35,692 nt of DNA from Anaerolineales bacterium (GTDB taxonomy: Bacteria; Chloroflexota; Anaerolineae; Anaerolineales; E44-bin32), in NCBI GenBank assembly GCA_022866145.1, contig JALHUE010000071.1, positions 1-35,692 of the forward strand. The letters are read 5' to 3'. Numbering within the stretch: position 1 is the first letter of the stretch; every line of letters begins with the position of its first letter. This document shows positions 14,762 through 35,692 of the stretch, piece by piece. The position numbers were made by a program, and so were the translations under genes. The notes below the pieces were generated by a model. That model did not search any database. It was not told the origin of the DNA and was given only the letters and a program-made list of their open reading frames with translations.

Positions 14762-14767
14762 TATAAT
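14762..14767 (+). promoter_or_regulatory. Candidate -10 (GGTATAAT) for the zinc-ribbon/scpA operon
   Basis: TATAAT at 14762-14767, 33 nt upstream of the GTG at 14801. The GTG has a GGGGAGGAG RBS. Confidence 0.45.
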
Positions 14768-14800
14768 CCTGTCCTTGAACAACCGTGAGGGGAGGAGACG

Positions 14801-16388: not shown

Positions 16389-16417
16389 TCTACCACCCGC
16401 CCTCCAGTCCAACGCGG

Positions 16418-16423
16418 TATAGG
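16418..16423 (+). promoter_or_regulatory. Possible -10-like box (TATAGG) placed for a leaderless YyaL-type transcript
   Basis: GCGGTATAGG, then CTGAC, then the GTG at 16429. There is no SD. The context resembles GCGGTATAAT at 14759. The hexamer is imperfect. Confidence 0.25.
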
Positions 16424-16428
16424 CTGAC

Positions 16429-20626: not shown

Positions 20627-22468
20627 TTACTCCACTGTGACGCTCTTGGCCAGATTCCGCGGCTGGTCGACATCGGCGCCCCGCAGCACAGCCACGTGGT
20701 AGGCCAGCAACTGCAGCGGAACGATGGTGACGATCGGGCTCAGCAGCCAGGGGGTTTCGGGCACCCACAGGACATGGTCGGCCAGCGGCGGCACGAGGGT
20801 ATCGCCTTCCGTCGCCACGACAATCACCGGCCCACCCCGGGCTTTGGTCTGCTCGATCTGGCTGATCATCTTCTCATACCAGGGATCCTTGGGGGCGATG
20901 GCGACAACCGGCAAGTCCTTGTCGACGAGGGCGATCGGCCCGTGCTTCATCTCGCCGGCGGGATACGCCTCGGCATGGATGTACGAGATCTCCTTCAGCT
21001 TGAGGGCGCCCTCGTAGGCGATCGGCATGTTGATGCCCCGCCCCAGGTACAGGCAATGCCAGATCTCCTTGAGCGTCCGGGCGACAACTTCGACTTCCGG
21101 CTCACGTTCCAGCGTTCGCCCGACCAGGTCCGGCACAAGCCGCAGGTCGGCGACCAGCTGCTTGCGTCGCGCCGGTGTCAGCCCTCCGCGTAGGTCTGCC
21201 AGGAGCACGGCCAGCATGTACAGGTCGATCAGCGGCGCCGTAAAGGCTTTGGTTGAAGCGACCCCGATCTCGGGCCCCACCTGCATGCTGATCGAGGCGT
21301 CGGCAATGCGCATGGCCTGTGAGCCGACGGCGTTGACGATGGACCAGATCCTGGCGCCGCGCCGGCGAGCCTCATCGATCGCCGCCAGGGTATCCGCCGT
21401 CTCGCCGGACTGGCTGATCGCCAGCACGACAGTGTCACTGTCGACCAGGGGCTCGCGGTAGCGGAATTCGGAGGCGATGTCGACCTCGACAGGGATGCGA
21501 GCGATCGACTCAATCATCACCTTGCCCACCATGCCGGCATGGGCTGCCGTCCCACAGGCGGTGATCACGATCTTGCGGATGGCGGCGGCGTCGGTCGGAG
21601 TCAGGCCGAGCTGGGGCAGCAGGATCCGGGCGTCGTCGAAATCCACCCGCCCGGCGATGGTGTCGGTCGAGGAGCGAACCTGCTCGTGGATCTCCTTCTG
21701 CATGAAATGCTTGTACTCGCCCTTCTCGGCGGCCACCGGGTCCCACGGAACGCTGTGGATCACCGGCCGAACCACGCTTCCGTCCATGGTTTCGAGGGCG
21801 TAGGCGCTCTGCCGGACCACAGCCATCTGGCCCGGGTCCAGGAAGACCATGCTTCGAGTGTGCTCGAGGATGGCGGGGATATCGGAGGCAAGGAACATCT
21901 CATCTTGCCCGATCCCAAGCACGACGCCGCCGGCGTTGCCCAGGCGGGCGGCGATGATCTTGTCGGGTTCATCGGCCGAGAGCAGCACGATTCCGTGGGC
22001 GCCCTTCAGCAGCGTGAGCGTGCGCCGGGCGGCCTCGGCCAGGCCGTGGCCCATGGCCAGGAATTTCTCCACCAGGTGCACAATCACCTCGGTGTCGGTG
22101 TCGGAGCCGAACTCCACGCCTTCGGCCAGCAATTCCTCTTTGAGGGGCAGGAAGTTCTCAACGATCCCATTGTGCACAACTACCACCCTCCCCGTCGATC
22201 CCAGGTGGGGGTGGGCATTGCGGGCGCTGGGTTCTCCGTGCGTTGCCCAGCGGGTGTGACCGATGCCGACCTGTCCATGCACCGGGTCAGCCGCCAGCAT
22301 TGCACCCAGCCGATCCAGCTTTCCCGCCTGGCGACGGACCTGGATCGTACCGTCTTGGATCACCGCCAGACCGGCCGAGTCGTAGCCGCGGTATTCGAGC
22401 CGTTTGAGCCCGGTGAAGATGATGGGCGCAGCATCGCGCCCGCCGACATAGCCGACGATGCCACACAT
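20627..22468 (-). CDS. glmS: Glutamine--fructose-6-phosphate aminotransferase
   Basis: The MCGIVGYVG N-terminal nucleophile starts at the ATG at 22468, with GGGAGG 6 nt upstream. SIS-domain motifs ISQSGETADT and GPEIGVASTKAF are present, and the C-terminus is LAKSVTVE. The 32-codon extension to 22564 lies inside the ribozyme. Confidence 0.97.
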   Translation of the reverse strand: MCGIVGYVGGRDAAPIIFTGLKRLEYRGYDSAGLAVIQDGTIQVRRQAGKLDRLGAMLAADPVHGQVGIGHTRWATHGEPSARNAHPHLGSTGRVVVVHNGIVENFLPLKEELLAEGVEFGSDTDTEVIVHLVEKFLAMGHGLAEAARRTLTLLKGAHGIVLLSADEPDKIIAARLGNAGGVVLGIGQDEMFLASDIPAILEHTRSMVFLDPGQMAVVRQSAYALETMDGSVVRPVIHSVPWDPVAAEKGEYKHFMQKEIHEQVRSSTDTIAGRVDFDDARILLPQLGLTPTDAAAIRKIVITACGTAAHAGMVGKVMIESIARIPVEVDIASEFRYREPLVDSDTVVLAISQSGETADTLAAIDEARRRGARIWSIVNAVGSQAMRIADASISMQVGPEIGVASTKAFTAPLIDLYMLAVLLADLRGGLTPARRKQLVADLRLVPDLVGRTLEREPEVEVVARTLKEIWHCLYLGRGINMPIAYEGALKLKEISYIHAEAYPAGEMKHGPIALVDKDLPVVAIAPKDPWYEKMISQIEQTKARGGPVIVVATEGDTLVPPLADHVLWVPETPWLLSPIVTIVPLQLLAYHVAVLRGADVDQPRNLAKSVTVE

Positions 22469-22504
22469 GGAACGCCTCCCTTGAACTGGGTAGATCGGTT
22501 GGTT

Positions 22505-22720
22505 GCGCCCTCCCAGCCGTATTGCCCGACCGGTCGCCCGGTCGGTCTTGTCGGCTGGATTCACTTGGGCATGGGTCGGGCGGTGGCTCGCCCGGAGGGC
22601 ATCCGCTGATCTCTCGATTTTCCCGGGAGAACGGTGGAGAGCCGCTCTCGTCTTCCGGTTAGCCCTGCCGCGAAGCAGGGAACCCTCGCCTCGTCACCCC
22701 GTCAGGGGCCATGCGCTACC
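22505..22720 (-). ncRNA. glmS ribozyme: glmS ribozyme (GlcN6P-dependent self-cleaving riboswitch) in the glmS 5' leader
   Basis: Read on the minus strand: A|GCGC cleavage-site block (22717-22713) and a GACGAG block (22652-22647). AUCGAGAGAUCAGCGGAUGCCCUCCGGG (22618-22591) matches the conserved AUCGA...CGGCGGAUGCCUCCCGG core as I remember it. A P3.1-like stem is GGGCG/CGCCC. A P4 stem is CCAGCCG (22558-22552) with CGGCUGG (22519-22513). It encloses a perfect 8-bp hairpin CCGACCGG-GCGA-CCGGUCGG (22545-22526). About 64 nt separate the cleavage site from GACGAG, similar to Bacillus-type ribozymes. It lies immediately upstream of the glmS RBS. Confidence 0.78.
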
Positions 22721-22774
22721 CTGCACTTCCGAATTCTCTGTCCTCGCTGGAACTCCTGTCTGGGCGTTGGACCG

Positions 22775-22819: not shown

Positions 22820-24265
22820 CTATGCGCAGTCCAGCGTATGTTGGGTGGCTCGCCCCAGGTCGTGGTAGTGGCCGCGGCGGTGGGCAGGCAGCATCTCGGC
22901 CAGGACATACATCGCCTCATCGGTCATCAGCCGCAGCTCGGCGCGGTCCGGCGTCCGCCCCAGCGGGCGAAAACGAAAGGCGGTTCCCAGACGAATCTCG
23001 GCACCCGCTCCCCGCCAGGCTTTCGCCGGCCATGGCGCCGGGAACCCCTCCGTGCCCTCGATCGCCACCGGGACAATCGGAGAGCTGCTGCGGTGAGCGA
23101 GATAGGCAATCCCTTCGCGCGCCTGGATCAGCGCCGGCGAGCGCGTGCCCTCCGGCGCCACGATCAACACCTCGCCCGCCGCCAGCACCGCCAGCGCCCT
23201 GCGCAGCGCCTCGCGGTCGACCTCCCCGCGCCGCACCGGAATGACCTGCCACATGCGCGGCATCCAGCCCAGCACCGGGATATCGTAGGCCTCGGCCTTC
23301 GCCATCGGCACGACGTTCCGCGGCAGCACGCCAAGCAGCGCCACCGGGTCAATGAAGGCGATGTGGTTGATCATCAGGATGGCGGGCCCTTGCGCCGGCA
23401 GGTGCTCCAGCCCGTCGACACGCTTGATCTTGACGAAGAGGGGGAAGACCATCCGCCGCAGAATCCAGCGATAGGCGTTCCGCCGGGCTTCCATGCGGCC
23501 ATGGTCGTAGCTGCCCGACAGCCCACGGGGCAGCAGGCTGGGCGCCGTCGTGGACGGATCCATGCTACCCTGCCCGCTCGTCTCGGGAGCACCCTCGGCC
23601 AAACGCAGCACCTCGGCGACAGCCCCCTCAACGGTCAGCCGCGTCGTATCCAATACCACTCCGTCAGCGGCCGGCTTGAGCGGAGCGAGTTCGCGGGTTG
23701 AGTCGAGGCGATCCCGCGCCTCCAATCCCTTGAGGATCGCGGCGAAGTCGGCCGGCTGACGACGCGCTGCCAGCTCGCTGGCCCGCCGCCGCGCTCGCTC
23801 TTCCAGGCTGGCGTCCAGATACACCTTCAGGTCGGCATCGGGGAGGACCACCGTCCCAATGTCTCTGCCGGCCATGACCACGTCGCCGCGGGCGCCGATC
23901 TCCCGCTGTAGGCCGGTCATAGCCTGCCGGACACCGCTGTACATCGACACCTGCGAGACCGCCGCGTCCACCTGGGCAGCGCGGATCGCCCAGGTCACAT
24001 CCTTGCCACCCAGGAACACATCACACAACCGGCCGTCGATCTTCGAGGCCGGTCGGACATCGATCCGCAATCGACCCGCCAGAGCGGCGACCGGGGCTTC
24101 GGCCGCCGTGTCGATCCCCTCTTGCTGGGCGGCCAGCGTCACTGCCCGGTACATGACCCCTGTGTCGAGGAACAGGTAACCCAAGGCCTTGGCCACCCGC
24201 AGGGCAACCGTGGATTTCCCGGAAGCGGCCGGCCCATCGATGGCAATCGTCCTGGCCCGGGCCAT
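22820..24265 (-). CDS. cmk-plsC: Fusion protein: cytidylate kinase (N-terminal) + 1-acyl-sn-glycerol-3-phosphate acyltransferase (C-terminal)
   Basis: Cmk half: IAIDGPAASGKSTVA, LDTGVMYRAVT and GRDIGTVVLPDA. A Pro/Ser/Thr linker (ETSGQGSMDPSTTAPSLLP) follows. PlsC half: the H-x4-D motif MINHIAFIDP and IVAPEGTRS. It is one uninterrupted frame. The ATG at 24265 lies 13 nt after the upstream stop. Confidence 0.88.
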   Translation of the reverse strand: MARARTIAIDGPAASGKSTVALRVAKALGYLFLDTGVMYRAVTLAAQQEGIDTAAEAPVAALAGRLRIDVRPASKIDGRLCDVFLGGKDVTWAIRAAQVDAAVSQVSMYSGVRQAMTGLQREIGARGDVVMAGRDIGTVVLPDADLKVYLDASLEERARRRASELAARRQPADFAAILKGLEARDRLDSTRELAPLKPAADGVVLDTTRLTVEGAVAEVLRLAEGAPETSGQGSMDPSTTAPSLLPRGLSGSYDHGRMEARRNAYRWILRRMVFPLFVKIKRVDGLEHLPAQGPAILMINHIAFIDPVALLGVLPRNVVPMAKAEAYDIPVLGWMPRMWQVIPVRRGEVDREALRRALAVLAAGEVLIVAPEGTRSPALIQAREGIAYLAHRSSSPIVPVAIEGTEGFPAPWPAKAWRGAGAEIRLGTAFRFRPLGRTPDRAELRLMTDEAMYVLAEMLPAHRRGHYHDLGRATQHTLDCA

Positions 24266-24278
24266 GCCTATCGCCGCC

Positions 24279-26048
24279 TCATGGCTGCAGGTCTCCCCCC
24301 GGCAGCACATCCGGCACGACCAGGTCCGAACGAACCAGGAGGACCCAGCGCTCCAGGTTGACCGGGGCAACGGCACGGAAGTACCAGTTGAGCAACCCCG
24401 GCGGCAATAGACCGGACCAGCCCCACGAAGCTCGGGTCGCCAGGCTCTGCCCTCGGTATTCGTCACGCAGTGAGGCCGATCGGAGGTCGTACTCCTGCTC
24501 AGGCAGCAGCACGATCCCCGCCGCCTCCGTCGCTCCGTCCGGCAGCCACTCGACAGGAGCCCGGCGCAGGCTCCAGGCCATCGATGGAGGCAGCTCTCCG
24601 TACACTTGGAGGGTCACGGGATCGGCGGACTCGCGCCGCGCGCCGGCGAGGGTATCGATACTCTCAGCCAGCAGGCGTTGACCCAGCGTGGAAGTGGTTC
24701 GGTTCGCCAGCTCCTGCCCGGTGCCGGCCCAGCCACTGTAGTTCAGCCTCCAAGTGGCCGCGACGCCCAGCAGCGCCGTCAGCGTGATCGCCACCGAGCC
24801 AGAGACGACGACCGCCTCGCGCCACGACCATCCCAACCCGATCAGTACAGCCATGAAAGCAGCCAGCAGCAAGGCTGCCGCAGCGAGGAACAGCTGCTGC
24901 GCCGGCCCCAGGAGCGGCGTGGAGGCCGCAAGCGACCCCTCGGCATAGCTCATCAGCTGCAGCCCGCCGAAGCCCAACACGAGCAGCATGGCCAGGCCCA
25001 GCCCCAGCCGCGAGGGCCATCCCGCCCGTTGCCTGAGCTCGATGGCCAGGTCGGCTAGCGCAAGGCCAGCCAGGACCGAAATCGCGGCGGTCGGCCAAAT
25101 CATCAGCTGCAGCGAGCGGCCGGGGTAGATGATGGCGACGGCAAGGCCGCCCAATGTCCAGCATGTCAACCAGCCTCCCGCGGCACTGCGGCGTGCAGAC
25201 GCACTGAGTATCCCGGCGATCCCCAACACCACCCACAGCGGCTGGTAGATCGCGAAGGCCGCCAGCAGAGTGAGCCCGGAGACCTCGGGAACAGACCCCC
25301 AGCCGGCCAGCCATGCCCCCGCTGCGCCCAGGGCCGCCGGGAGAGCCGAAGGCACGAACCCGAGGGCGGTCGACGCCAGCAGAAATGCGCCCACGCCGGC
25401 CGCGCCAACCACCCGCCAGTCCCTTTCCGCAGGCCGAGGCAACGGATCGAGCACCCGCTTGCGCAATGCAAGATAGAGCAGCGAGCCCAGGCCAACTCCA
25501 GCCAGGCCGGCGGCGGCCTCTGGTCCGGCGGCGGCTACCAGGCCAATGCACGCGCCAAGAGCCAGGTTGGCCCAAGAGGTCTGAGGCCAGGTGAGATAGC
25601 CGGCCAGGCCGAGGCCGATCACCAGCAGGGCCGTCATGCCTCCATCAGGCGCCCGTGACGAAGTGACCAGGATCGGAGCAATCGCCAGCAACCAGGCGCC
25701 AATCACCGAGGGCCATCGGCCCAGAACTGGACGGAGAAACCAGGGAACCAGGACGAGGCCCGTCCCGGCCAGAGCGCCCAGCAGCCGAGCCGTGGCGTCG
25801 CTCAATCCGGCAATCTGGAACAGGATGCTCGTCCAGGCATGGTAGAGCGGGTTGACGGCCGCCGAAATCGCCTCCGGGACTGGCAAGGCCATCGGGATCC
25901 TGCTGGCAGCGGCCGCGGCCAACGCCTGGGCCGCCTGGTCATCCGTGAGAAGCGGCCAGGTCGGCTTGGCTAATCGCAGTCCGGCCGCGAGCAGGAAAGC
26001 CCCAGCGTAGGCAAGGATCTCGAAGTTCACCGAGAACTGGCGCTTCAT
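24279..26048 (-). CDS. Polytopic membrane protein, GT-C/PMT_2-like N-terminal architecture (protein D, 589 aa), function unknown
   Basis: About 12 or more hydrophobic helices are followed by a ~130-aa soluble C-terminus. The first loop carries DD (aa 36-37, nt 25943-25938) after an LRL helix. It is followed by an R-x3-G-A-L-A-G-rich helix like the N-terminal modules of proteins A and B. The start ATG shares one nt with the upstream TGA (TGATG). Confidence 0.6.
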   Translation of the reverse strand: MKRQFSVNFEILAYAGAFLLAAGLRLAKPTWPLLTDDQAAQALAAAAASRIPMALPVPEAISAAVNPLYHAWTSILFQIAGLSDATARLLGALAGTGLVLVPWFLRPVLGRWPSVIGAWLLAIAPILVTSSRAPDGGMTALLVIGLGLAGYLTWPQTSWANLALGACIGLVAAAGPEAAAGLAGVGLGSLLYLALRKRVLDPLPRPAERDWRVVGAAGVGAFLLASTALGFVPSALPAALGAAGAWLAGWGSVPEVSGLTLLAAFAIYQPLWVVLGIAGILSASARRSAAGGWLTCWTLGGLAVAIIYPGRSLQLMIWPTAAISVLAGLALADLAIELRQRAGWPSRLGLGLAMLLVLGFGGLQLMSYAEGSLAASTPLLGPAQQLFLAAAALLLAAFMAVLIGLGWSWREAVVVSGSVAITLTALLGVAATWRLNYSGWAGTGQELANRTTSTLGQRLLAESIDTLAGARRESADPVTLQVYGELPPSMAWSLRRAPVEWLPDGATEAAGIVLLPEQEYDLRSASLRDEYRGQSLATRASWGWSGLLPPGLLNWYFRAVAPVNLERWVLLVRSDLVVPDVLPGGDLQP

Positions 26049-28690
26049 CAGAACCCTCGGCCGCTGCGGGCGGCGTAGATCATGACTTCATCCGAGGCAT
26101 ACACCAGATCCATGGCAGCCTCGAACTTGGCCATGGCGGGCGGCGTCAGTGAGTATGTACGGCGCTCCAGCGGCCCGATGTACACATAGTCGATCCCGTA
26201 GGTCTGTAGGATCCCGACCAGCTCCGTCGTCTCGTGGGTTTGGTACAGTCGGCGCAGGTCCTCCTTGCGGGTTCCCTGAGGCTCCATGCTGCCTCGCCAT
26301 TGCAGCTCATGGAATTCCCAGCCTAACACATTCGGCATCCCGGTGTGGGTAGCGATCCGGCCGAACTCGGTGTAGCTGCCGCCGACGGCCTCGGCAATCA
26401 CCCCGGGCGGGAGGAACGCCCGAATCCATTCGATGGCGATCGCATCCTCCGGTCGCTCCGCAGCCAGATGGGCAGTACCGTCCAGTGTCAGCCCCGCCGG
26501 CGGCCGAAAACCATTGGTCTTGGTCCAGGTCGCCAGGGCAGGATAGACCAGTCCAAATAGCAGGGGCAGCAATGCCAGGGCCCGGAGTGCCCCTTTCCAG
26601 GAGGACTCTCGAGGCCAGAGCTCGGTCGCCACGAAGGCAGCCGAAAGCCCCAACAGCACCCAGGCCGCGTAGTAGAACTTGAAGACCGTGTTCATGCGCG
26701 TGCCGAACAGGTCCTTCAAGTAGACGAACTCCGGGCCGAGGATCAGGAGCAATCCGATAGCGGCCATGGCCAGCACGAAGGGAGTTCCAGCGGTGAAACC
26801 CGCCGGCTCGCCTTGACGGCGAAATCGCCGCAAGAGCACCGCCGCCAAGCCGAGGGCAGCCCCGATGACAACCGGGGTCAGGCCAGCCTGCAGCCGGCGG
26901 GCGATGCCCGTCTGCAGCGCCTGCTGGGCTGAGCCTGCCGCCAGCTGGTTGAGGGCGTCCGCGACCAGTCCAGGCTGCGCCGCCACTGCCGCCCCTCCCA
27001 GGAGGAGCGAGATCAGCCAAAGCCCCAGGGGAAGACCGAAGGCCAGGCCCAGGAGCAGCCAGGTATCGCGCCGAGACCAGCCTGGCGAGGCGCGCCAGAC
27101 CAGCCAGACCAAGACCGGCACAAGCGGCACGGCGAACATCACCAAGAGCTGCACGAACCGTGATGGAAAGAACAGGTTGGGCAGAATGCCGCCAGCCTGG
27201 GAGGTGAACGTCGGGTACCACGGTAGATACAACAGCAACCCAAGTAGCAGCGTCGTGACGACCGTCAAGGTCGGCGGGACAAGCAGCTCCCTCCAAGCCC
27301 CCGATTTCGATTTCCAGAGCAGCACCAGATACAGCAAGGCCAAGTAGATCGGCAGATCCCAGGTGTTGAGGAAAGCCAGCGCGCCAAAGAACCAGGCGGC
27401 CCACAGCAGCTCGGAAGCGGTCAGGGAAGATGGGAACATCCCCGAAAACGTCCCGATCAGCAGCGAGCCGGTGGCAACCAGTATCCCGCCGATGATCAGC
27501 ACGCCCCCGGCGGCGGCCAGCGCGCCCTGCGCGCTTCCAGACGTCTGATAGGCGCCGGCTGCTCGAGCCACCGACAGGGCCAGGACCAGCCCCAGCGCGG
27601 CGTACAGCCCGCGCCGGGCAGTCTTGGGGGACAACCCACCGGCCCAAGCCCGAATCCGGAGCTCCCCGCGCCGGGCCGACAGGAAGATCTGAAGCGTGAA
27701 GGCAATGGCGAGCAAGACGAATGGCAGTGCCAGCAAGTGAGGGTGATTGTCGGCCAGAAGGAATGAGAAGAAGGGGAACTCGTCGATGACCTCGATGTCC
27801 GCACCGCCGAGATTGCGGTCGTGAATCACACGCGAAGCCCGCCACCACCACAGGAACCGATTGGGCATCAGACTGGGAGGTGAGACCGGTGCCGCATTCA
27901 GGTCCTTGATGTCCAGCCAGGTCCAGAAGCGCGAGGTCAGTTCCCCATCGGCCCGGGCGCGCCAGCCGATATGCCCTGACCAGAGCACGTCCAGGATCCC
28001 TTCGAGATTGCCGGCGACCAAGACGAACAGCGGACCCAACAGGGCGGCGGCGTGGCGCAGCCCCGCCTGTCGCCGCTGCAACAGGCTGAGCAGGATGCTC
28101 CAGGCGCCGAGGCAGGTCAGGGCGAACCACAGGGCATTCCCCAAATTGAAGGCCACCCCGGCCGGCACCGCCGTCAGTCGAGACATGAGCGCCAGCAGGA
28201 CATACCCGAAGTAGTAGTACGAGATCGCATAGCCCGAGAGCCACGGATCTTGCGGCGGGAAGCGCGGCGATTGGAGCACGGCATTCAGGTATGCCAGCTC
28301 CATCGGTTTCTCGGTTGCGGCGATCTCCGGGTTCGCCGCCCGGACCGCGGCCCATCCGACAAAGGCCAACAGAAACAGCAGCTCGGTCCAGAAGACGGTC
28401 CGCCGATGCTGGCGGATCCACGCCCAGAGATCTCGCCAGCGCCCAGCCCCGGCAACCAGCCCGCCGGCACCGAGAACAACCAAGGCACCGAAGGCGCCGG
28501 GGAAGTCATTGCGTAGGACCCCGACGGACGCCCCGAGCCACAGCAGATACCCCGACGCCAGCAAACCCAGGGCGCGACTGAGGGCATACCCGCGATCGGC
28601 CAGGTGCGGGAACAGGCGGTAGGCGATCGGCAATGCCAGAGCGCCAAGAAGCGCCGTCCAGATCCACCAGGCGATCAGGGGTGCGATCAT
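26048..28690 (-). CDS. YYY-motif giant membrane protein (DUF2298 / Chlor_Arch_YYY family; protein C, 880 aa)
   Basis: DPWLSGYAISYYYFGYVL (YYY at 28219-28211), EFPFFSFLLADNHPH (27781-27737) and RMNTVFKFYY (around 26700-26672). It is highly hydrophobic and has a soluble C-terminal domain. The ATG overlaps the stop of protein B (ATGA at 28690-28687). Confidence 0.85.
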   Translation of the reverse strand: MIAPLIAWWIWTALLGALALPIAYRLFPHLADRGYALSRALGLLASGYLLWLGASVGVLRNDFPGAFGALVVLGAGGLVAGAGRWRDLWAWIRQHRRTVFWTELLFLLAFVGWAAVRAANPEIAATEKPMELAYLNAVLQSPRFPPQDPWLSGYAISYYYFGYVLLALMSRLTAVPAGVAFNLGNALWFALTCLGAWSILLSLLQRRQAGLRHAAALLGPLFVLVAGNLEGILDVLWSGHIGWRARADGELTSRFWTWLDIKDLNAAPVSPPSLMPNRFLWWWRASRVIHDRNLGGADIEVIDEFPFFSFLLADNHPHLLALPFVLLAIAFTLQIFLSARRGELRIRAWAGGLSPKTARRGLYAALGLVLALSVARAAGAYQTSGSAQGALAAAGGVLIIGGILVATGSLLIGTFSGMFPSSLTASELLWAAWFFGALAFLNTWDLPIYLALLYLVLLWKSKSGAWRELLVPPTLTVVTTLLLGLLLYLPWYPTFTSQAGGILPNLFFPSRFVQLLVMFAVPLVPVLVWLVWRASPGWSRRDTWLLLGLAFGLPLGLWLISLLLGGAAVAAQPGLVADALNQLAAGSAQQALQTGIARRLQAGLTPVVIGAALGLAAVLLRRFRRQGEPAGFTAGTPFVLAMAAIGLLLILGPEFVYLKDLFGTRMNTVFKFYYAAWVLLGLSAAFVATELWPRESSWKGALRALALLPLLFGLVYPALATWTKTNGFRPPAGLTLDGTAHLAAERPEDAIAIEWIRAFLPPGVIAEAVGGSYTEFGRIATHTGMPNVLGWEFHELQWRGSMEPQGTRKEDLRRLYQTHETTELVGILQTYGIDYVYIGPLERRTYSLTPPAMAKFEAAMDLVYASDEVMIYAARSGRGF

Positions 28691-31600
28691 TGCACCACCT
28701 CATAAATCGTCGTTTGCCCCTGCTGATAGGCCGGCCGGAGAATCCCCTGTTCCACCATCTTCGGGAACTTCTCCAGCCCAAATGTCGGACACTCCAAAGG
28801 CGACTGCGGAATTGTGGCGTCGATCGGCCAGCAATCCGCGGCAGCGGTGTCCGGCTGCGGCATGCCCAACGGCCAGCCGCTCAGCTCACACAGCACTCCC
28901 CCGGTGACTTCCATCGGCGAGCAGGGCTGTACAGTCTCGAAGAACATCTGCTCGAGCTGGCCTACGACGATGTATCGGACATCGTAGCGTTCCAGGAACT
29001 CCACGGCAGCCTCGATGGACCGGGTGAGATAGAAGTCATTGATCGCCAGTGCCCGATCGGTGACCACCGCCTCACCGGAGACCAGCCGCTGCTGACGCTG
29101 ATGCCAATTCCAGCCCAGGACTCCTGGCAGTCCAGTGTAGATCGTGTAGCGCGAGCCCCAACGGTACTCGGGGACGTTCGCCTCGACGATCACCGGCGAG
29201 CCCTCGACGTTCTGCTGCATCCACCGAATCGCTGCGTGGTCCTCTGCCATCGAGAACGACTTTCCGAGGTCATGGTAGCTGGAGGTCAACATGTAGGCCA
29301 TGCCATCTAGGCCGCGCGGCGCTTCGCTGGATATCCGATCGCGGACCTTGGCGACGGTTGCCGTCACCGGGTAGGCCAATGCCGCCCCGGCCAGCACAAT
29401 CAGCCCGACCGACCAGAGCCAACGCCAGGACGGAGACCAGAATCGCAGGTCCGACCACGTCCAGGCGAGGGCTGCGGCCGATGTCAGGGCGAAAATTTCC
29501 CACACCTGCAGGTAGAACTTGAAGACAGTGTTCATGCGCGAGATGTCGCCAACGGCGACCACGACCTCGACCAGGAATGTCAGGGCCAGGGCGGCGCCGA
29601 CCAACACCAGGGCATACCGCTTCTCGAGCGGCTGGCCAGGGCGCAAGAACAGCAGGCCCGCCCAGGCCAACATCGGCACGACCACGAGTGCAATAGAGTA
29701 GTCCATCGCCGCCAGGACCGCCGTCAGGGCGCCGAGCCCGATCGCCCCGGCGAAGATCAATCCTGCATACGGCCGGAGGCGAGCCAGGCGCGAGAGCGGC
29801 GTCGCCGCCATCCACTGCCGCGTCTCCCACCCCATCCACAGGATGAGCAGGAACAGGAACAGACCATGCACGGTGAAGTAGGCGTCCAGGCTGGTGGTAG
29901 ATCCCTGCCAGCGGGCGATTTCCCCGTAGCCCTCGCCATACCACTGATGGTAGGGGGCATACAGCAACCCGGCCAGCGCCAACAGGCCGAAAGCCGACAG
30001 GGCGGCGTCAGCCAGCATCCGGACGTCGAGCTTTGGACGCCGGACCCAGGCGGCCGCGATCAGCCCGACAAACGCCAACGCCCGGTAGTCCGGCGCGTCC
30101 GCCAGATTGGTCGGCTCGATCGCCCCCAGGATCAGCCCCCCCACCCACAGGCCAAGCAGGATGTTGAGGGGCCTGCGTCGCCGATGGTCATCGGCCTCGA
30201 TCAGCCAAGCCAGCAGCCAAACCAGAGTCAGCGTGGTCAGCAGCCGGCTAAACATGTGCGCGTGCAGGTCGGCATACAGGAACGTGAAGAACGGAAACTC
30301 GGTGATTGGACCGGCTTCGCCGCCCTCAGGCGGAATGGCCCGGCTTGGGTCCCAGTACCAGGAATCCAGACCCATTGGCAGAGGTGACTGCAGGGTCAGA
30401 TAGCGACCAGCGCCGCGGGCAGCCTCCAGCAACCCCGGCAGGGCGCGTTCACCCAACTCAGCTTGAGACGCACCAATGCGTTTGAAACCGGTGTACACCA
30501 TCCGCGCCGTCCCGAGGTTCCCCAGCAGCACCAGCCCCAGCGCAGCTGAGATCCCGGCGATCCGGGCGCAGCGCAGCCCGGAGCAGTCCCTTCCGGCCAG
30601 GGTGCGGGCGACCAGGTTGGATCCGCCCGAGTAGGCGACCAGCCCCAGAAGCGCGAAGAAGGTCGGCAACGCCAGGTTGTAGGCAATGGCGGGTTCGATG
30701 CCGAGCAGCTTGATCGGAACGGCGGCGAGGACAAAGCCGTAGTAGTAATAGTTGATATACCCCCCGGCGAACCATGGATCATACGGCGGGAAGGAGGTGC
30801 TCTTGAGGACCGCCGTCAGATACGACAGGTCCATCGGCTTCTCCCCGCCCTTCGACGGGTGCCACAGGTCCGGGTTGCCGATGCGAATCAGCAGATCCAG
30901 CAGAAACAGCGAGAGCGCCAGGATTTCCACCCAGGCGATCTCGCGTCGACGGGCCCGCCAGTAGCCCAGCAGTTCGTCCCGGTCCCGCCAGGCCAACGCT
31001 GCCGACAGCCCGCTCAGGAGGGCGATCACCAGCAGGATGGAAAGACGGGTGAAGGAGATCCCCAGGCTGCCAAGGATCCAGACGCCCCAGCCGACGATGA
31101 CCAATCCGGCGGCCCGGGCGAGCGGGTAGCCGCCATCGCGTAGCCCCGGGAAGGCCACGCGCACGACCGGAAATGCTGCGAGCCCAAAGAGTGCGATCAA
31201 CATCCACCAGACAACCGTCGCCAGCGCGGGATAGCGATTGAGCACAGACCCGGGCGGGAACAACTCGCGCCACGTGCCCCCGGCTCGCTGCCGCTCCAGT
31301 CGGTCAGCCGGCAGCATCAGATCCGGCGGCGGCTCGCCGGCCTCTTTCGGGATGACATGCACCACCCGCTGCAGGTCCACTTTGGCCAGCAAGTCGCGCA
31401 CTCGCTCAGCCGAGAAGGTGTCCTGCTTGGCGAAGATCAGGACCTTCGGATGGTCGTAGACGGTGAACGCTTCTTCGGCTAGTTGGTCGCTGACTTCGAC
31501 CGGCCCGAGGCGCAGGTTGCTCTCAAACACCTCGATCAATTCGTACCCCAGGCTGCCGCTGACCTCGCCTGGACTCGCTTTGGCATAACACGCCAGAACG

Positions 31601-34029
31601 CTCTCCTCTGAAGGGCAGTCAATCAGCAGCCGGTAGTAGGCCGTGGTGAGCGGATAGCGCTGAGGGACCCGGGGGGCGGTTCCATACTGCCGGTTCGAGG
31701 TGATGATCAGCAGGTCAGCCTGCTCGAGGCTGTCGACGATCCGCTGCGCCTTGTCGGGGACTCCGTCGAAGTCGTCGTCCTGGTCATCCTGCCAGTACAG
31801 TTCCTGGACAACACTCCCGTACAGTCCGCCGTTGTCTCGCGAGTCGACGCGCACCGGCAGGCCATCATCCCAGGAGGACTCGCTGGCGATCACCGCACCC
31901 CGCAGCCCCAAGGCCGAATCCTCGAGCATCAGGCGCAGGCGGTAGTCTCGGTCGCGCTCCACTTCGAACGGGGAATCGAATCGCAAGCTCAGCGAGATCT
32001 CGTCACCCGCCGGCAACGGCTGCGCCAGACGGCCCCGAGCCACAAGCGGGCTTCCCGGGGCGCTGTCATCATAGACCTCGGCGACGGCGATGAGCGCCTC
32101 CCCGGTGCCTCCGGGAAGGCGCCGGGCAAACGGCAGCAGCACTCCCTCGGCCGTCCCATTCTGGCGGGCAGTGAACGAGAACTCCTGCGGGATCCCCGAG
32201 GCCAGCGCGTACACCTCGCGCGGGTACCCCATGGATTCAACCGGCGAGCCTTCGCGCGACTCCGTCACCACGTCCATCGTCCCCCGCAGCATGACGGCGC
32301 CCGGTGTGTCCATGGAGAGACGGACGACGTAGCGCGGTCCAGGCTCGACCGGCAGCGCCTGGTCCAGCGGAATGACCAGCCGGGTTTCCCCGCCCTGCTC
32401 CAGCAGTTCGGCGCTGCCACTGGCCAGGGCTTGCGCCGAATCCGGCGCGGGCAGCACCTCGACTCGCAGCCGCTTGACGCCGGTTCCAGGTGCGAGGTCG
32501 GTGACGTGGGTCAGGGTGACCTCGTCGACGGTCCCGGTGACCTGGCTGGTGAAGGAGGAGTCGAACGCCTTAGCCTGGGTGAGGACAAAATCCAGCGGCA
32601 GCGGAATCGGTTCCAGCCTGGGCTCAGCCTCACCCTCGAGCAGCAGATTCGCCGGACCCGGCAGGTTGCGGTAGATCCAACGGGAAGCTGCGACCCGGGT
32701 CATCGGTTGGGTATAGACGGAGAGGAAGGCAAACGCCTGGGCGGCGGAGAGCGCAAGGACTGTCACCAGAAGTGCGCCGGCCGCGATCCGGGACGGCCGC
32801 CGCCAGCGGCCAGGCGCATTGCCCGCCTTGAACCACAGCTGCCACAAGAACCACGATCCGAGCAGGGCCAGCGTGGGATAGACCGGCAGCATGTAGCGCA
32901 TCGAGGGCGTGAAGCTCGTCGATTGCCAAAGGAAGTAGGCGCCAGTCCAGGTGACCAGGAGCAAGTGCAGCCGCCACTCGCCTCGCAGCGAACGGTAGAT
33001 AGCGTAAGCCCATCCCGCCCAAGCTACGATCGCGGCCGCAGGACCCATCCCCCACAACACCAAGTTGCGCAGGGCGAACAGGATCGGTGTCCGGTTGGCC
33101 CACTGCAATGCCGGGGGGAAGTCGACGTCGCCGCTGGCTTGCTGCCGGATGACAGCCATGTTGTCGAGCCACAGGGGATTCAGATGCAGCCCGAGGAACC
33201 CAGGCCCGGAGAAGGCATACGGCTGCAGGATCCGGAACACTACCAGCGAGGCGAAGGCCGCCAGTGACAGCCCAGCCACCAGACGCACCAGCTCACGTTC
33301 ACGGCCCTCCCGCGGGACGGTCCAGTAGCGGGCGGCCACCGCCAGCACCAGCACCAGGCTGAGCGGTGCCGCACTGACCTTGGTGGCGACGGCCATCCCG
33401 AGGGCGATCCCGAAGAGGGCGTAGTCCAGCCAGCGACCCCTGGCCTGGGCCAGCACGGCGAAGTACAACCCAGCCACGATGAAGGTGTTCAGGAAGGGGT
33501 CGACAACGAAGAAGTGCGCGTGCTGGATCAGCAGCGGAGAGAACGCCAGCAGGGCAGCCGCCAGCAGGCCTACCCGGCGGCGGTACAGCCGTTCGCCAAG
33601 CAGATATACGAAAAGGATGCTGATCAGGTCAAACGCCGCCGAGGCCCCCCGCCCAACCAAATGAATCTGGTCGTACCCCGACTGGCCCAACCCCTCGGCC
33701 AGGAAGCGGACGAGGAAGATCGGAAGTGTCCCATAGACGAAGAAACCATGGCCAGTGTTGTGCGGATTCAGCGGCGAGGTGGCGGTATTGAAGTACTCCG
33801 CCACGGTAGCGGGCAGGCTCAGGCTGCTCTCCACCATGGTCAGAAAGCGCTCATCGGGATGCAGATGGGTGTACTCGTCCCAGTTGATGCCGGTGAGGCG
33901 CAGGTAGGCTGCGATGAGCAGGATGACGACGATCAGCCCGTCGTGAAGCCAGTCACGGGGCGGGGTGCGGGTGCGCGGCGACGGAGGGAGATCCTCATTG
34001 GGCGAAAGCGAAGGCGGCGCGGATTGCAT
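28687..34029 (-). CDS. 1780-aa fusion membrane protein (protein B): N-terminal GT-C/PMT_2-like module, ~490-aa extracytoplasmic region with a tandem beta-rich module, and a C-terminal YYY/DUF2298 module
   Basis: N-terminus: YLRLTGINWDEYTHLHPDERF (33882-33847), VYGTLPIF, R-x-ASAAFDLISILFVYLL and ATK, as in GT39/ArnT-like proteins. C-terminus: DPWFAGGYINYYYYGFVL (YYYY at 30750-30739), EFPFFTFLYADLHAH (30300-30256) and RMNTVFKFYL (29540-29512). The ATG at 34029 directly abuts the upstream TAG. Confidence 0.85.
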   Translation of the reverse strand: MQSAPPSLSPNEDLPPSPRTRTPPRDWLHDGLIVVILLIAAYLRLTGINWDEYTHLHPDERFLTMVESSLSLPATVAEYFNTATSPLNPHNTGHGFFVYGTLPIFLVRFLAEGLGQSGYDQIHLVGRGASAAFDLISILFVYLLGERLYRRRVGLLAAALLAFSPLLIQHAHFFVVDPFLNTFIVAGLYFAVLAQARGRWLDYALFGIALGMAVATKVSAAPLSLVLVLAVAARYWTVPREGRERELVRLVAGLSLAAFASLVVFRILQPYAFSGPGFLGLHLNPLWLDNMAVIRQQASGDVDFPPALQWANRTPILFALRNLVLWGMGPAAAIVAWAGWAYAIYRSLRGEWRLHLLLVTWTGAYFLWQSTSFTPSMRYMLPVYPTLALLGSWFLWQLWFKAGNAPGRWRRPSRIAAGALLVTVLALSAAQAFAFLSVYTQPMTRVAASRWIYRNLPGPANLLLEGEAEPRLEPIPLPLDFVLTQAKAFDSSFTSQVTGTVDEVTLTHVTDLAPGTGVKRLRVEVLPAPDSAQALASGSAELLEQGGETRLVIPLDQALPVEPGPRYVVRLSMDTPGAVMLRGTMDVVTESREGSPVESMGYPREVYALASGIPQEFSFTARQNGTAEGVLLPFARRLPGGTGEALIAVAEVYDDSAPGSPLVARGRLAQPLPAGDEISLSLRFDSPFEVERDRDYRLRLMLEDSALGLRGAVIASESSWDDGLPVRVDSRDNGGLYGSVVQELYWQDDQDDDFDGVPDKAQRIVDSLEQADLLIITSNRQYGTAPRVPQRYPLTTAYYRLLIDCPSEESVLACYAKASPGEVSGSLGYELIEVFESNLRLGPVEVSDQLAEEAFTVYDHPKVLIFAKQDTFSAERVRDLLAKVDLQRVVHVIPKEAGEPPPDLMLPADRLERQRAGGTWRELFPPGSVLNRYPALATVVWWMLIALFGLAAFPVVRVAFPGLRDGGYPLARAAGLVIVGWGVWILGSLGISFTRLSILLVIALLSGLSAALAWRDRDELLGYWRARRREIAWVEILALSLFLLDLLIRIGNPDLWHPSKGGEKPMDLSYLTAVLKSTSFPPYDPWFAGGYINYYYYGFVLAAVPIKLLGIEPAIAYNLALPTFFALLGLVAYSGGSNLVARTLAGRDCSGLRCARIAGISAALGLVLLGNLGTARMVYTGFKRIGASQAELGERALPGLLEAARGAGRYLTLQSPLPMGLDSWYWDPSRAIPPEGGEAGPITEFPFFTFLYADLHAHMFSRLLTTLTLVWLLAWLIEADDHRRRRPLNILLGLWVGGLILGAIEPTNLADAPDYRALAFVGLIAAAWVRRPKLDVRMLADAALSAFGLLALAGLLYAPYHQWYGEGYGEIARWQGSTTSLDAYFTVHGLFLFLLILWMGWETRQWMAATPLSRLARLRPYAGLIFAGAIGLGALTAVLAAMDYSIALVVVPMLAWAGLLFLRPGQPLEKRYALVLVGAALALTFLVEVVVAVGDISRMNTVFKFYLQVWEIFALTSAAALAWTWSDLRFWSPSWRWLWSVGLIVLAGAALAYPVTATVAKVRDRISSEAPRGLDGMAYMLTSSYHDLGKSFSMAEDHAAIRWMQQNVEGSPVIVEANVPEYRWGSRYTIYTGLPGVLGWNWHQRQQRLVSGEAVVTDRALAINDFYLTRSIEAAVEFLERYDVRYIVVGQLEQMFFETVQPCSPMEVTGGVLCELSGWPLGMPQPDTAAADCWPIDATIPQSPLECPTFGLEKFPKMVEQGILRPAYQQGQTTIYEVVQ
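31880..32575 (-). repeat. Tandem duplication of a ~126-aa module inside protein B (protein-level repeat)
   Basis: Copy 1 starts at SFTSQVTGTVDEVTLTHVTDLAPGTG (S at aa 492, nt 32556) and ends RYVVRLSMDTPGAVMLRGTMDVVTES. Copy 2 starts at SFTARQNGTAEGVLLPFARRLPGGTG (S at aa 618, nt 32178) and ends DYRLRLMLEDSALGLRGAVIASES. Shared anchors are SFT..GT..V.L, GTG, Y.(V/L)RL, LRG and ES. Confidence 0.55.
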
Positions 34030-35692
34030 CTAGGGCACCGGGCCCGGGCCGCGCCAGGCTTCGTCCGGGCCGCGCGCCGGAACGGCGTAGATCAGGAAGT
34101 CATGTCCTTCTTCCGGCGGAATAAAGTGGCTCAGCGTTCCGGATGGGAACACCTGCTTGAGGGTGTCCAGGCCTTCCTGGTCCTGCGGGTTCAGGATGAA
34201 CAACTGCGCCCGTCGCTCCCCTTCGAGGGTGGAAAGGTCCGGCGGCCAGATGGCGTAATCTCGCAGAGGGTCGCCGGCGTGGATGCCCACCAGGCGCGTG
34301 TCCACCCAGTAGGGAAAGGCGACGACGTGAGCCGTCTGATAGCTGCCCGTGGAGGCTGCGAAGCTGCGAATCACCTCACCCATCTGGCCGGTGTTCCAGG
34401 CGGATCGCCGGAACAACCCGGCGTACTCGACGAATACCAGGCGGTAGTTCAGGCCGATCGCCACCACCAACAACGCGGCGGCCGCCCCTGCCCAGGCCGC
34501 CCGCGCCAGACGCGACGACCACTGGCGCCAGATCCAATCCAGCAGTCCGGCCAACGGGATCGCCGCCAGGGTATAGACGGGGACAATCGCCCCGGAGGCG
34601 CGGTTGGTCGCCGGGTTCTCGGCGGGGAACGCCAGCGCCATGATCGAGGGCAGCATCAGCAGGGGAATCGAGAGCAGGGTGAACAGGTCGAGCCAGGAAC
34701 GGCGGCGAACATAGCGGACGGCGACTATCACGACGCCAAGATGGAACAGGGCGGCTGTCACCCAATCCAGGGCCGGACGGTGAGGGATCGAGTTCACCCA
34801 GACTTCGCCGTTGTCCCAGCCGAACATGCGCAGGGCATTCCAGGTGTTGCTCAGGAAGAGCACCAGCGGATCCCCGGGGAGCTCGCGCTCCGCTTCTCCA
34901 ATTCTCGTCAGCGCCCGTAAGAACAACTGATCGGGCATCTCGATCGCCACCCGCAGCAGCGGGGTGAGAGCGATCAGGGCGATCAGGCCGGCAGCGACCA
35001 ACCAGCTGGTCATCGCCAGGCGCTGCCCGCGTGCCTCGCGGTGCAGCAGGAAGAGGAGCACGCCGAAGGCAATCACGAGGGGGAGGACGCGCGTCGGCGA
35101 GTAGCCATGCAGACCCAGACCGATGAACAGCCCGCACCACAGGAAATCGTTGCGGCTGCGGCGCCGGATGCCCCGCGCCAGGAAGTACATCGCCGGCGCT
35201 ACGAAGAGCGGATACAGAGGAAACCGCAGCCCCACCCGGCTGATCACGTTCGGCCAATAGGCAATCCCGGCCAGGACGAAGGCAATCAGCCCCGCCTTGC
35301 GTCCCGCCACTTCTTTGGCGAACAGGTAGACAAAAGGCAGGGTCACCCATCCCGCCAGCGCCGTGCCGATCTTCAACGTGAGGAAGGTAATGCCGGTCCC
35401 CAGAAGGGCATTGGTGGCTGCCGCCAGGTAGAACTGCAGGGCCTCGCGACCGGTGTTGCGCGGGAAGAAGATGGCGGTCAGCCCGCTCTCGACGTCCAGC
35501 ACGTCCAGCAGCTTCTCGGCATGATCACTGACCATTTCGATCGGCACGCTGCGCAGGTAGGCAAACCGAAAGAACAGCGTAAGGGCAATGGCGCCGGCCG
35601 CCGCCACGCCCCAGGCCCCGACATGGATGTGAACCCGTGGCGAGCGCAGCCAGCGGGCTGCTTGGCGCAACCCGGCCCGCAACTGGATCTCG
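34030..35692 (-). CDS. GT-C/PMT_2 (ArnT-like) polytopic membrane protein (protein A, at least 550 aa); N-terminus at the window edge
   Basis: About 12 hydrophobic helices plus a ~130-aa soluble C-terminus. The K-x-G-T-A-L-A-G-W-V-T-L-P-F-V-Y-L-F-A-K helix pattern parallels the B N-terminus and D. A TTG at 35682 is a possible start. The frame stays open to nt 35691, so the gene may begin outside the window. Confidence 0.6.
   Translation of the reverse strand, partial: EIQLRAGLRQAARWLRSPRVHIHVGAWGVAAAGAIALTLFFRFAYLRSVPIEMVSDHAEKLLDVLDVESGLTAIFFPRNTGREALQFYLAAATNALLGTGITFLTLKIGTALAGWVTLPFVYLFAKEVAGRKAGLIAFVLAGIAYWPNVISRVGLRFPLYPLFVAPAMYFLARGIRRRSRNDFLWCGLFIGLGLHGYSPTRVLPLVIAFGVLLFLLHREARGQRLAMTSWLVAAGLIALIALTPLLRVAIEMPDQLFLRALTRIGEAERELPGDPLVLFLSNTWNALRMFGWDNGEVWVNSIPHRPALDWVTAALFHLGVVIVAVRYVRRRSWLDLFTLLSIPLLMLPSIMALAFPAENPATNRASGAIVPVYTLAAIPLAGLLDWIWRQWSSRLARAAWAGAAAALLVVAIGLNYRLVFVEYAGLFRRSAWNTGQMGEVIRSFAASTGSYQTAHVVAFPYWVDTRLVGIHAGDPLRDYAIWPPDLSTLEGERRAQLFILNPQDQEGLDTLKQVFPSGTLSHFIPPEEGHDFLIYAVPARGPDEAWRGPGPVP

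Follow-up and report, generated by a model that had tools for sequence, protein, structure and literature searches.

The 35,692-nucleotide (nt) stretch analyzed here (the window) is contig JALHUE010000071.1 of an uncultured Anaerolineales bacterium (phylum Chloroflexota; assembly GCA_022866145.1), and its minus strand carries a translationally coupled operon of membrane protein genes, designated A to D. These four genes encode five modules of the GT-C class of glycosyltransferases (GTs): gene A, the N-terminal part of gene B (B-N), the C-terminal YYY/DUF2298 part of gene B, gene C (a stand-alone YYY/DUF2298 protein), and gene D. For the two YYY modules, this assignment is likely and comes from a structural model. 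An earlier interpretation made from the DNA alone (referred to below as the sequence-only reading) had counted three GT-C modules and two YYY modules of a separate kind; the model makes a GT-C-like fold likely for the latter as well, which brings the count to five. Five GT-C modules in an operon that is conserved throughout a class suggest that it probably builds a cell envelope glycan. On balance, we favor the view that this operon serves as an extracytoplasmic assembly line for an envelope glycoconjugate of Anaerolineae, either a polysaccharide or a lipoglycan. For the steps that go past GT-C-fold proteins with outward-facing motifs in a conserved operon, we infer the details from GT-C enzymes known elsewhere.

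The operon is very compact. The A/B junction reads CCC-TAG-ATG, so that the TAG stop of A abuts the ATG of B. B and C overlap by 4 nt (ATGA), C and D overlap by 1 nt (TGATG), and a 13-nt spacer separates the stop codon of D from an ATG at position 24265, which opens a typical N terminus of cytidylate kinase (Cmk), IAIDGPAASGKST. Spacers within the operon range from -4 to +13 nt in the window, and the spacing in relatives is equally tight. A consensus scan found no promoter-like sites inside the cluster, and terminator-like sites there show no excess over shuffled controls. The list of open reading frames (ORFs) gives the same coordinates as the sequence-only reading for A, B, C, D, the last ORF, and glmS (Table 1); together with the junctions, it supports the proposed minus-strand A-B-C-D-cmk-plsC operon and the translational coupling of its polytopic membrane proteins. 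All six minus-strand genes have a G+C content of 0.80 to 0.84 at third codon positions. In the long ORFs that run antisense or in alternative frames, the GC content peaks at codon position 1 or 2, so that these ORFs do not look like coding sequences.

The profile searches against Pfam and TIGRFAMs that the sequence-only reading had called for assign A and B-N to PMT_2, the C-terminal part of B and C to DUF2298/TIGR03662, and D, weakly, to TIGR03663. Gene A scores 38 bits against PMT_2 (gathering score, 26.1). Its motif S55-D56-H-A-E59-K60..D63 is invariant across 42 orthologues, and the acidic residues D56, E59, and D63, invariant in the same 42 sequences, are located in the first loop after transmembrane helix 1 (TM1). 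The window holds only the 3' part of this gene. Full-length A has 734 amino acids (aa) on the near-identical contig L081, which comes from Logan SRR19116067 (the other L numbers used here denote loci of relatives), and it is identical to the window fragment over their common length; the earlier figure of at least 550 aa is thus correct as a lower bound and falls short of the full length. In B, residues 127 to 239 match both PMT (46.4 bits; gathering score, 22.7) and PMT_2 (46.4 bits; gathering score, 26.1). B-N holds about 11 hydrophobic segments, and its motif H57-P-D59-E60-R is invariant after TM1 among 21 orthologues. With scores above the Pfam gathering thresholds, A and B-N are PMT_2-type GT-C proteins, as had been proposed. 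PDB profile searches with the A and B-N families returned nothing meaningful, nor did a single-sequence search with B. A, B-N, and D each keep acidic residues in the first predicted extracytoplasmic loop after TM1.

The middle region of B, about 490 residues long, contains no hydrophobic segments and has no Pfam match even at an E value of ≤1; the same E value limit yielded no Pfam match for the soluble domains of B, C, and D. A profile of the middle region gives only weak matches in the PDB, to the Ig-like adhesin domain of FnBPA (E value, 0.0016) and to a hyaluronan-binding carbohydrate-binding module (E value, 0.025). Judging from these similarities, this region may be a putative carbohydrate-binding module. 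The C-terminal part of B scores 361 bits against DUF2298 over residues 978 to 1512 (gathering score, 27.8) and 497.9 bits against TIGR03662 (cutoff, 300.25). It is 29 to 34% identical to C and keeps the EKPM[DE], DPW, YYY, EFPFF, D.H.H, and RMNTVFKFY motifs of that protein, with the YYY motif reading INYYYYG. Since the YYY half of B retains most of the invariant residues of C, both YYY modules look functional.

Two further observations concern the architecture of B. In locus L084 (positions 12316 to 17302), B is called as two genes, one encoding a PMT_2 protein (717 aa) and the other a DUF2298 protein (950 aa), which overlap by 20 nt. The alternatives are a truly unfused arrangement and an assembly frameshift, and the choice between them matters for the question of whether PMT_2 and YYY must be fused. 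Giant YYY-containing proteins in the representative library (P0325, P0329, P0377, and P0398) comprise 2,434 to 2,719 aa, with 4 to 8 matched stretches; their YYY region begins near residue 710 to 830, and their architectures are larger than that of B.

Gene C scores 345 bits against DUF2298 (gathering score, 27.8) and 477.3 bits against TIGR03662 (cutoff, 300.25), so that the C-terminal part of B and C both exceed the thresholds of the two families and are YYY proteins, as originally suggested. The YYYxG motif appears in C as S157-YYYFG and is invariant or nearly so in 50 sequences. The YYY family includes about 9,185 representatives at 50% identity. Homologues of C number in the thousands and are mostly unnamed or annotated as "DUF2298" or "uncharacterized membrane protein," all of them from Chloroflexota-type metagenome bins. 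Literature searches on DUF2298, TIGR03662, PF10060, and the YYY domain found no functional study, and none of the AlphaFold-based surveys of new GT-C families found in the searched literature covers DUF2298. The earlier statement that the YYY family has no assigned function agrees with these results and with the lack of a solved structure of any relative.

An AlphaFold2 (AF2) model of C, built from a 50-sequence alignment, has a predicted local distance difference test score (pLDDT) of 87 and a predicted TM-score (pTM) of 0.91. In a Foldseek search of the PDB, the top nine matches of this model are all GT-C enzymes (DPY19, AftA, AglB, and STT3), with a probability of 1.0 and E values of 3.5e-5 to 2e-3. 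The C-terminal domain separately matches the C-terminal globular domain of AglB-S2 (PDB 3vu0; TMt, 0.53; probability, 1.0). On the strength of this model, the YYY modules likely have the GT-C fold, although this is not proven. The model contains about 18 predicted helices. These helices and the positive-inside rule place the Arg-rich loops at residues 82 to 95, 206 to 214, and 338 to 354 in the cytoplasm and the invariant polar clusters T126-E127-K-P-M-E131, D148-P-W, S157-Y-Y-Y, D291, E304, and D314-N-H-P-H318 on the outside. Further invariant residues with a predicted outside location are N442..D445, E654, D660, R665, N667, W791, H794, E795, Q797, W798, and R799. Such outward-facing invariant clusters, if correctly placed, would be expected for an enzyme that acts on the outer face of the membrane.

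The same structural matches could also point to protein glycosylation, in which A and B-N would O-glycosylate secreted or surface proteins in the manner of the GT39 enzyme Pmt and the YYY modules would transfer oligosaccharides onto envelope, sheath, or S-layer-like proteins. In favor of this role, A and B-N fall into the PMT and PMT_2 families of protein O-mannosyltransferases, C is structurally matched by AglB, STT3, PglB, and DPY19, an enzyme that modifies peptides, and C shares with the oligosaccharyltransferases both the layout of a polytopic part followed by a C-terminal globular domain and the fold of that domain in 3vu0. The GT4, methyltransferase, and flippase-like genes located upstream of A (see below) could make and flip a lipid-linked oligosaccharide, and a study of the related archaeal protein Agl23 describes it as acting in N- and O-glycosylation (PMC11182771). 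However, a Pfam scan of 50 YYY proteins at an E value of ≤1 detected only DUF2298 and sporadic DUF6541 domains and no STT3 in any of them. Reading the C sequence by eye, without structural superposition, revealed no WWDYG string; the conserved stretch at positions 788 to 800 is GWEFHELQWRG. Further, the cluster has no gene for a candidate acceptor protein, and PMT_2 is a broad family that covers ArnT-type enzymes modifying lipids and glycans, so that its name implies no protein acceptor. Protein glycosylation therefore appears to us an unlikely role for this operon, and assembly of an envelope glycan remains the preferred one.

Gene D has no Pfam match, and neither single-sequence nor family-profile searches of the PDB with D returned anything meaningful. 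Its AF2 model (pLDDT, 84.6; pTM, 0.85) yields 18 GT-C matches in Foldseek at E values of ≤1e-3. The best of these is ArnT (PDB 5f15; E value, 1.6e-8; TM-score, 0.52 to 0.57), followed by STT3, AglB, ALG9/12, PglB, Pmt4, EmbB, and AftD; the E values of the group from ArnT to PglB range from 1.6e-8 to 5e-5. In hhalign, the D profile (51 orthologues) aligns with the B-N profile at a probability of 94.6% (E value, 6.6e-8; 321 columns) and with the A profile at 84.9%. The ArnT-like fold of a confident model supports the original proposal that D is a GT-C module. Among the four proteins, D shows the lowest conservation, with about 25 to 33% identity where C has 37 to 50%. It has only four invariant columns and keeps two invariant arginines. 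The D family has an acidic D-x-E motif after TM1, with E in 42 of 44 sequences; in the window's clade, D36-[D/E]37 is followed by Q38. Loss of the catalytic Glu in D, which Q38 might indicate, was considered and rejected, as the acidic pair in this clade is shifted by one residue (D-[D/E]-Q).

TIGR03662 and TIGR03663 are described in TIGRFAMs as co-occurring as neighbors in Chloroflexi and Archaea. D matches TIGR03663 with 38.8 bits over residues 68 to 132 only and does not reach the cutoff of 126.25 bits. TIGR03663 is nonetheless the best NCBIfam match of all 51 D orthologues at an E value of ≤0.01 (best E value, 3.9e-41) and the sole one in 50 of them; the remaining orthologue also has a marginal match to EPS_sugtrans (E value, 0.0032). 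Ten sampled D orthologues score 23 to 85 bits, below the cutoff, and nine D orthologues reach PMT_2. These subthreshold scores make D a diverged relative of the TIGR03663 family and not a member by the curated threshold. NCBI now names this family "flippase activity-associated protein Agl23" after the Haloarcula hispanica protein (PMC11182771), and the partner family of YYY is thus no longer unassigned. According to that study, H. hispanica Agl23 is proposed to flip hexose-P-dolichol; in liposomes, the protein in purified form is reported to have translocated a lipid-linked oligosaccharide, and Agl23 also rescued yeast rft1 (PMC11182771).

If D followed this precedent, D and possibly A would be GT-C-fold carriers, scramblases, or noncatalytic partners, and the operon would combine donor delivery with one or two true transferases, the YYY proteins. 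The consistent TIGR03663 match of the D orthologues, the reported translocation and rft1 rescue, the low conservation of D, and the adjacency of YYY and TIGR03663-type genes in most loci all agree with such an arrangement. However, D has retained an acidic pair where GT-C enzymes have their catalytic residue, along with its two invariant arginines, suggesting a working active site; the score of the window D is far from the family cutoff (38.8 versus 126 bits); and many relatives already have a separate PF03706 flippase-like gene in the operon. Moreover, the Agl23 phenotype would, in our interpretation, fit equally well a transferase that consumes the flipped donor. We consider a carrier role improbable, to about the same extent as protein glycosylation, and continue to treat all five modules as candidate transferases in envelope glycan assembly.

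Conservation of the operon was assessed in a scan of one genome per species, in which over 570 loci proved to encode a relative of C; the top 80 of these, nearly all from Anaerolineae-type metagenome-assembled genomes (MAGs), were used for counts by tblastn with the window proteins. The full order A - B(N) - B(YYY) - C - D - cmk is found in 41 loci. The YYY part of B lies directly upstream of C in 59 of the 61 loci with room for it, D comes immediately after C in 59 of 72 loci, cmk comes next after D in 50 of 55 loci, and A precedes B in 46 of 51 loci. The order A-B-C-D-cmk holds down to approximately 36% identity of C, and the more distant lineages Caldilineales and Ardenticatenia have only a B-like gene and C. 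Gene order is thus kept across Anaerolineae; the sequence-only reading had stated that a lack of such conservation would speak against a dedicated system. One locus (L013; JAIWHF010000015.1), which is labeled as a Methanosarcinales archaeon MAG, contains the A-B-C-D operon of these bacteria. Over 15.3 kb, it shares 91.8% identity with the Anaerolineales contig L010 and, therefore, was almost certainly misbinned into an archaeal MAG.

Conserved order could, in principle, reflect a stable housekeeping region of a single class, in which membrane proteins with unrelated roles sit side by side and share no pathway. The flanks are indeed housekeeping genes (cmk, plsC, and glmS in the window, lepA and tlyA in relatives), and all loci come from one Chloroflexota class. 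However, the short overlaps (4 nt and 1 nt) and the directly adjoining stop and start codons are seen again in relatives that are 37 to 85% identical. In addition, A-B-C-D is fixed while its flanks vary, with either an epimerase or PF03706 gene upstream and one to three plsC genes, with or without glmS, downstream. All four proteins belong to one fold class, and in B the YYY module forms one polypeptide with a PMT_2 module, whereas in L084 these modules appear as two adjacent genes. We regard a mere neighborhood of this kind as highly improbable and a common pathway for envelope glycan assembly as the better explanation.

The operon extends beyond the window. Over 11,663 nt, contig L081 has 6 mismatches to the window, and it reaches 1,630 nt further. 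In this extension lies a gene for an S-adenosylmethionine-dependent methyltransferase, whose stop codon overlaps the ATG of A, preceded by a GT4 gene of which the 3' end is included. The suspicion that the operon may continue upstream is thus confirmed. Relatives with long contigs have the order lepA - PF03706/TIGR00374 flippase-like gene and/or NAD-dependent epimerase/dehydratase gene - GT4 - methyltransferase - A - B - C - D - cmk. PF03706/TIGR00374, GT4, and methyltransferase genes are joined by spacers of ≤13 nt in L082, L085, and L088, and in L082 such spacers continue all the way from PF03706 to cmk; L084 and L089 have the same three genes in the same order at looser spacing. GT4 and methyltransferase genes are found upstream in most loci and a PF03706 gene in at least 20 loci, the flippase-like protein being of the MprF/PF03706 type. 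The earlier statement that the operon contains no cytoplasmic GT and no flippase holds inside the window and fails beyond its edge, where the GT4 gene of L081 and the PF03706 genes of relatives are located; the apparent want of both stems from the end of the contig. We assign no specific function to the GT4 protein, whose PDB and NCBIfam matches are generic and include SPS-like, MshA, and PimA/B at well below the cutoffs.

All seven long contigs of relatives that were examined also carry a UbiA-family gene in a divergent three-gene operon located 4 to 6 kb upstream of A. In L082, it occupies positions 3354 to 4226 on the minus strand, and it is found at the same place in L084 to L089; its two neighbors overlap it by 4 nt. 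As a decaprenyl-phosphate phosphoribosyltransferase, UbiA scores 254 to 270 bits against a curated NCBIfam cutoff of 234 (six of seven scanned). The neighboring genes in L082, the one locus scanned for them, match mevalonate kinase and isopentenyl phosphate kinase, and the other long contigs have GHMP-kinase and AA_kinase family genes at the same two positions. Enzymes of the DPPR (decaprenylphosphoryl-phosphoribose) synthase type make polyprenyl-phospho-ribose, the precursor of pentofuranose donors for GT-Cs; such donors serve GT-C enzymes of mycobacteria, the arabinosylation of Pseudomonas pilin, and the systems described by Kelly et al., and combinations of a polyprenyl-phosphoribose synthase with a flippase and a GT-C provide a precedent (PMC11194591). 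In the relatives studied here, tlyA and lepA set the UbiA gene apart from the cluster and outside the same operon. As it is thus separated and comes from relatives only, a UbiA-based pentofuranose donor, suggested by the gene content, is simply a lead.

In the pathway that we propose, the cytoplasmic GT4, together with the methyltransferase and the epimerase, would build or modify a lipid-linked primer at the inner leaflet of the membrane. The primer would cross the membrane via the PF03706 protein and/or the Agl23-like D, and the PMT_2-type and YYY-type modules would then extend and branch it stepwise on the outer face. The donors of these modules would be polyprenyl-phosphate sugars, which, to our knowledge, all characterized GT-C enzymes use, and one of them might be a polyprenyl-phospho-pentofuranose supplied by the UbiA of relatives. 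A more far-reaching version combines several of these suggestions: YYY would be a large undescribed GT-C family (approximately 9,000 clusters at 50% identity) that, with its PMT_2- and Agl23-type paralogues, forms the core class-wide synthase of outer envelope layers in Anaerolineae and Chloroflexota, with donors that are partly polyprenyl-phospho-pentofuranose made via UbiA and a product resembling mycobacterial arabinan or a ribofuranan-like polymer. Taken as a whole, this version is speculative, and we give it a rather low probability.

Several results weigh against a GT-C assembly line. The global TM-scores of the C model to GT-C structures are low (0.16 to 0.37), with root mean square deviations of 17 to 27 Å; the YYY profile shows no signal against the PMT_2-type A and B-N profiles in hhalign (1 to 3% probability); and neither single-sequence nor family-profile searches of the PDB with C find a related chain. 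With no similarity at the profile level, the YYY modules are linked to GT-C enzymes solely by predicted structure. Agl23, the sole studied relative of D, is reported to be a translocator and not a transferase (PMC11182771). No polyprenyl-phosphate sugar synthase of the GT2 type is found in the cluster, and the PF03706 and UbiA genes are known from relatives only, as the contigs of this organism stop short of the place in question. Finally, the choice of the 80 loci by their match to C biases them towards close relatives, and the lepA, tlyA, cmk, plsC, and glmS surroundings mean that part of the conserved order could be general synteny of the class.

GT-C clusters for envelope glycans are already known. 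New are the likely placement of the YYY family among them, the five-module architecture with a giant PMT_2-YYY fusion, and its class-wide conservation in the phylum Chloroflexota. Chloroflexota have layered envelopes with outer layers that are thought to consist of polysaccharide or protein, and they have no genes for lipopolysaccharide or the β-barrel assembly machinery (PMC13319060, citing Sutcliffe). With its five GT-C modules and the genes for a GT4, a methyltransferase, and a flippase-like protein, this class-wide operon is a specific candidate for the machinery of these outer layers. The model-based placement of YYY/DUF2298 in the GT-C fold class would give this family a likely reaction class, and the link of the Agl23 family to a bacterial setting could help settle whether its members are translocators or transferases.

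Table 1. Features of the operon and its 3' flank in the 35,692-nt window
Feature	Position	Strand	Basis or remark
Gene A, PMT_2-type GT-C membrane protein, 3' part	34030..35692	-	ORF 34030..35682+, runs off window end; 553 of 734 codons plus stop
Gene B, 1780 aa	28687..34029	-	ORF list
Gene B, N-terminal PMT/PMT_2-type GT-C module, ~aa 1-440	32710..34029	-	Pfam
Gene B, middle non-membrane region, ~aa 441-930	31240..32709	-	Hydrophobicity; presumably extracytoplasmic
Gene B, C-terminal YYY/DUF2298 module, aa 931-1780 plus stop	28687..31239	-	Pfam, NCBIfam
Gene C, stand-alone YYY/DUF2298 protein, 880 aa	26048..28690	-	Pfam, NCBIfam, AF2
Gene D, predicted ArnT-like GT-C fold, 589 aa	24279..26048	-	AF2, Foldseek, TIGR03663 similarity
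cmk-plsC as a single ORF, 481 aa from ATG	22820..24265	-	Pfam
glmS ribozyme in glmS leader	22503..22728	-	RF00234; marks 3' limit of operon, outside the system
glmS	20627..22468	-	ORF list

The last ORF of the operon contains the Pfam domains Cytidylate_kin (229 bits) and Acyltransferase (84.5 bits). Its fusion point is codon Q232, a CAG at positions 23572 to 23570 of the minus strand, and the Met of plsC follows three codons later, at position 23563. The two closest relatives (L001 and L002) have TAG in place of this CAG and retain the plsC Met, the cmk genes of relatives encode 223 to 234 aa, and the fusion is found in 1 of 43 loci. The fusion represents a recent stop loss or, possibly, a base error common to two assemblies. 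The sequence-only reading had taken it as the end of a dedicated operon; both domains do share one ORF here, but a single TAG-to-CAG change without a match in relatives is not a designed feature of the system, and this interpretation was rejected. A 351-nt gap separates cmk-plsC from glmS. It includes a TATAAT-like box, GGTATAAT, about 40 nt past the cmk-plsC stop codon, and a glmS ribozyme (RF00234) that is matched over the full model with 30.1 bits (gathering score, 37; E value, 2.7e-5) and that exceeds this gathering score at the same position of L004 (42.3 bits) and L007 (41.4 bits). With its own leader and ribozyme, kept in relatives, glmS is a separately controlled housekeeping gene, and its proposed role as a dedicated amino-sugar supply to the system was likewise rejected.

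Elsewhere in the window, a second GT4 gene (5874 to 7121) is found about 17 kb from the operon, beside genes for a DUF218 protein (4976 to 5824) and an M28 peptidase (3592 to 4815), all on the minus strand. A tRNA-Thr (CGT) gene at 7224 to 7299 on the plus strand directly precedes a uridine kinase/PRK-family ORF listed at 7291 to 8097; as the listed start overlaps the tRNA, the true start of the kinase must be further downstream. The 680-aa protein encoded at positions 16429 to 18471 (plus strand) carries at its N terminus a DUF255/DsbH thioredoxin-like domain (252 bits); antisense to its gene, at 16390 to 18003, is a 537-aa ORF with no family match.

One close known counterpart of the cluster is the TIGR03662/TIGR03663 gene pair. 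As in that pair, the YYY proteins carry the eponymous motif and pass the TIGR03662 cutoff, and a TIGR03663-like gene comes directly after a YYY gene. In contrast, the cluster adds two PMT_2 modules, one of them in a giant PMT_2-YYY fusion with a soluble middle domain of about 490 aa, as well as the upstream GT4, methyltransferase, and flippase-like genes, and its D protein stays below the family cutoff. Agl23 itself has been studied in an archaeal dolichol-based glycosylation pathway (PMC11182771).

With the GT66 enzymes STT3, AglB, and PglB, C shares a large polytopic domain followed by a predicted extracytoplasmic C-terminal globular domain that resembles the one of AglB-S2. It differs from them in lacking an STT3 match in Pfam and, by eye, the WWDYG string, in its low global TM-scores, and in having about 18 predicted helices versus 13, with three extra helices before the acidic-motif loop. 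The ArnT and PMT enzymes (GT83 and GT39) are similar to the cluster in that A and B-N are PMT_2 members, ArnT is the best structural match of D, and A, B-N, and D all have an acidic motif after TM1, but A and B-N each have large extra domains. Anaerolineae lack a lipid A pathway, according to the literature cited in PMC13319060, so that the acceptor must differ from that of ArnT.

The cell wall machinery of mycobacteria offers a broader parallel. There, the GT4 enzymes PimA and PimB act first, and the GT-C enzymes PimE, MptA-C, EmbA/B/C, and AftA-D then build lipomannan, lipoarabinomannan, and arabinogalactan, with a UbiA/DPPR pathway for the donor. Common to both are several paralogous GT-Cs that are encoded together and act outside the membrane (in our case, a prediction), priming by a cytoplasmic GT4 (here, proposed), very large GT-Cs with soluble extracytoplasmic domains (AftD and Emb there, B here), and a DPPR-synthase-type UbiA, which in relatives is encoded near the cluster; in addition, C or D is structurally matched by AftA, AftB, AftD, and EmbB. 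On the other hand, PDB sequence and profile searches revealed no sequence-level homology to Emb or Aft, no DprE1 or DprE2 genes are seen here, and YYY is absent from the mycobacterial system. We know of no arabinan or lipomannan in Chloroflexota.

Finally, the cluster can be compared with three-component systems, such as GtrABC, ArnC/ArnEF/ArnT, and the systems of a polyprenyl-phosphoribose synthase (PPPRS), a MATE protein, and a GT-C (PPPRS-MATE-GT-C) described by Kelly et al. in 2024. In these, as proposed here, a polyprenyl-phosphate donor is made, flipped, and used on the outside by a GT-C enzyme, and the relatives of the window have a flippase-like gene and a phosphoribosyltransferase-type UbiA gene in or near the cluster. 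However, the flippase-like protein is of the MprF/PF03706 type instead of MATE or GtrA, and UbiA is encoded outside the operon. The main difference lies in the number of transferases: the three-component systems have a single GT-C that decorates a finished polymer, whereas this cluster chains five GT-C modules. Their presence in one class-wide operon suggests assembly of a glycan backbone rather than its optional decoration.

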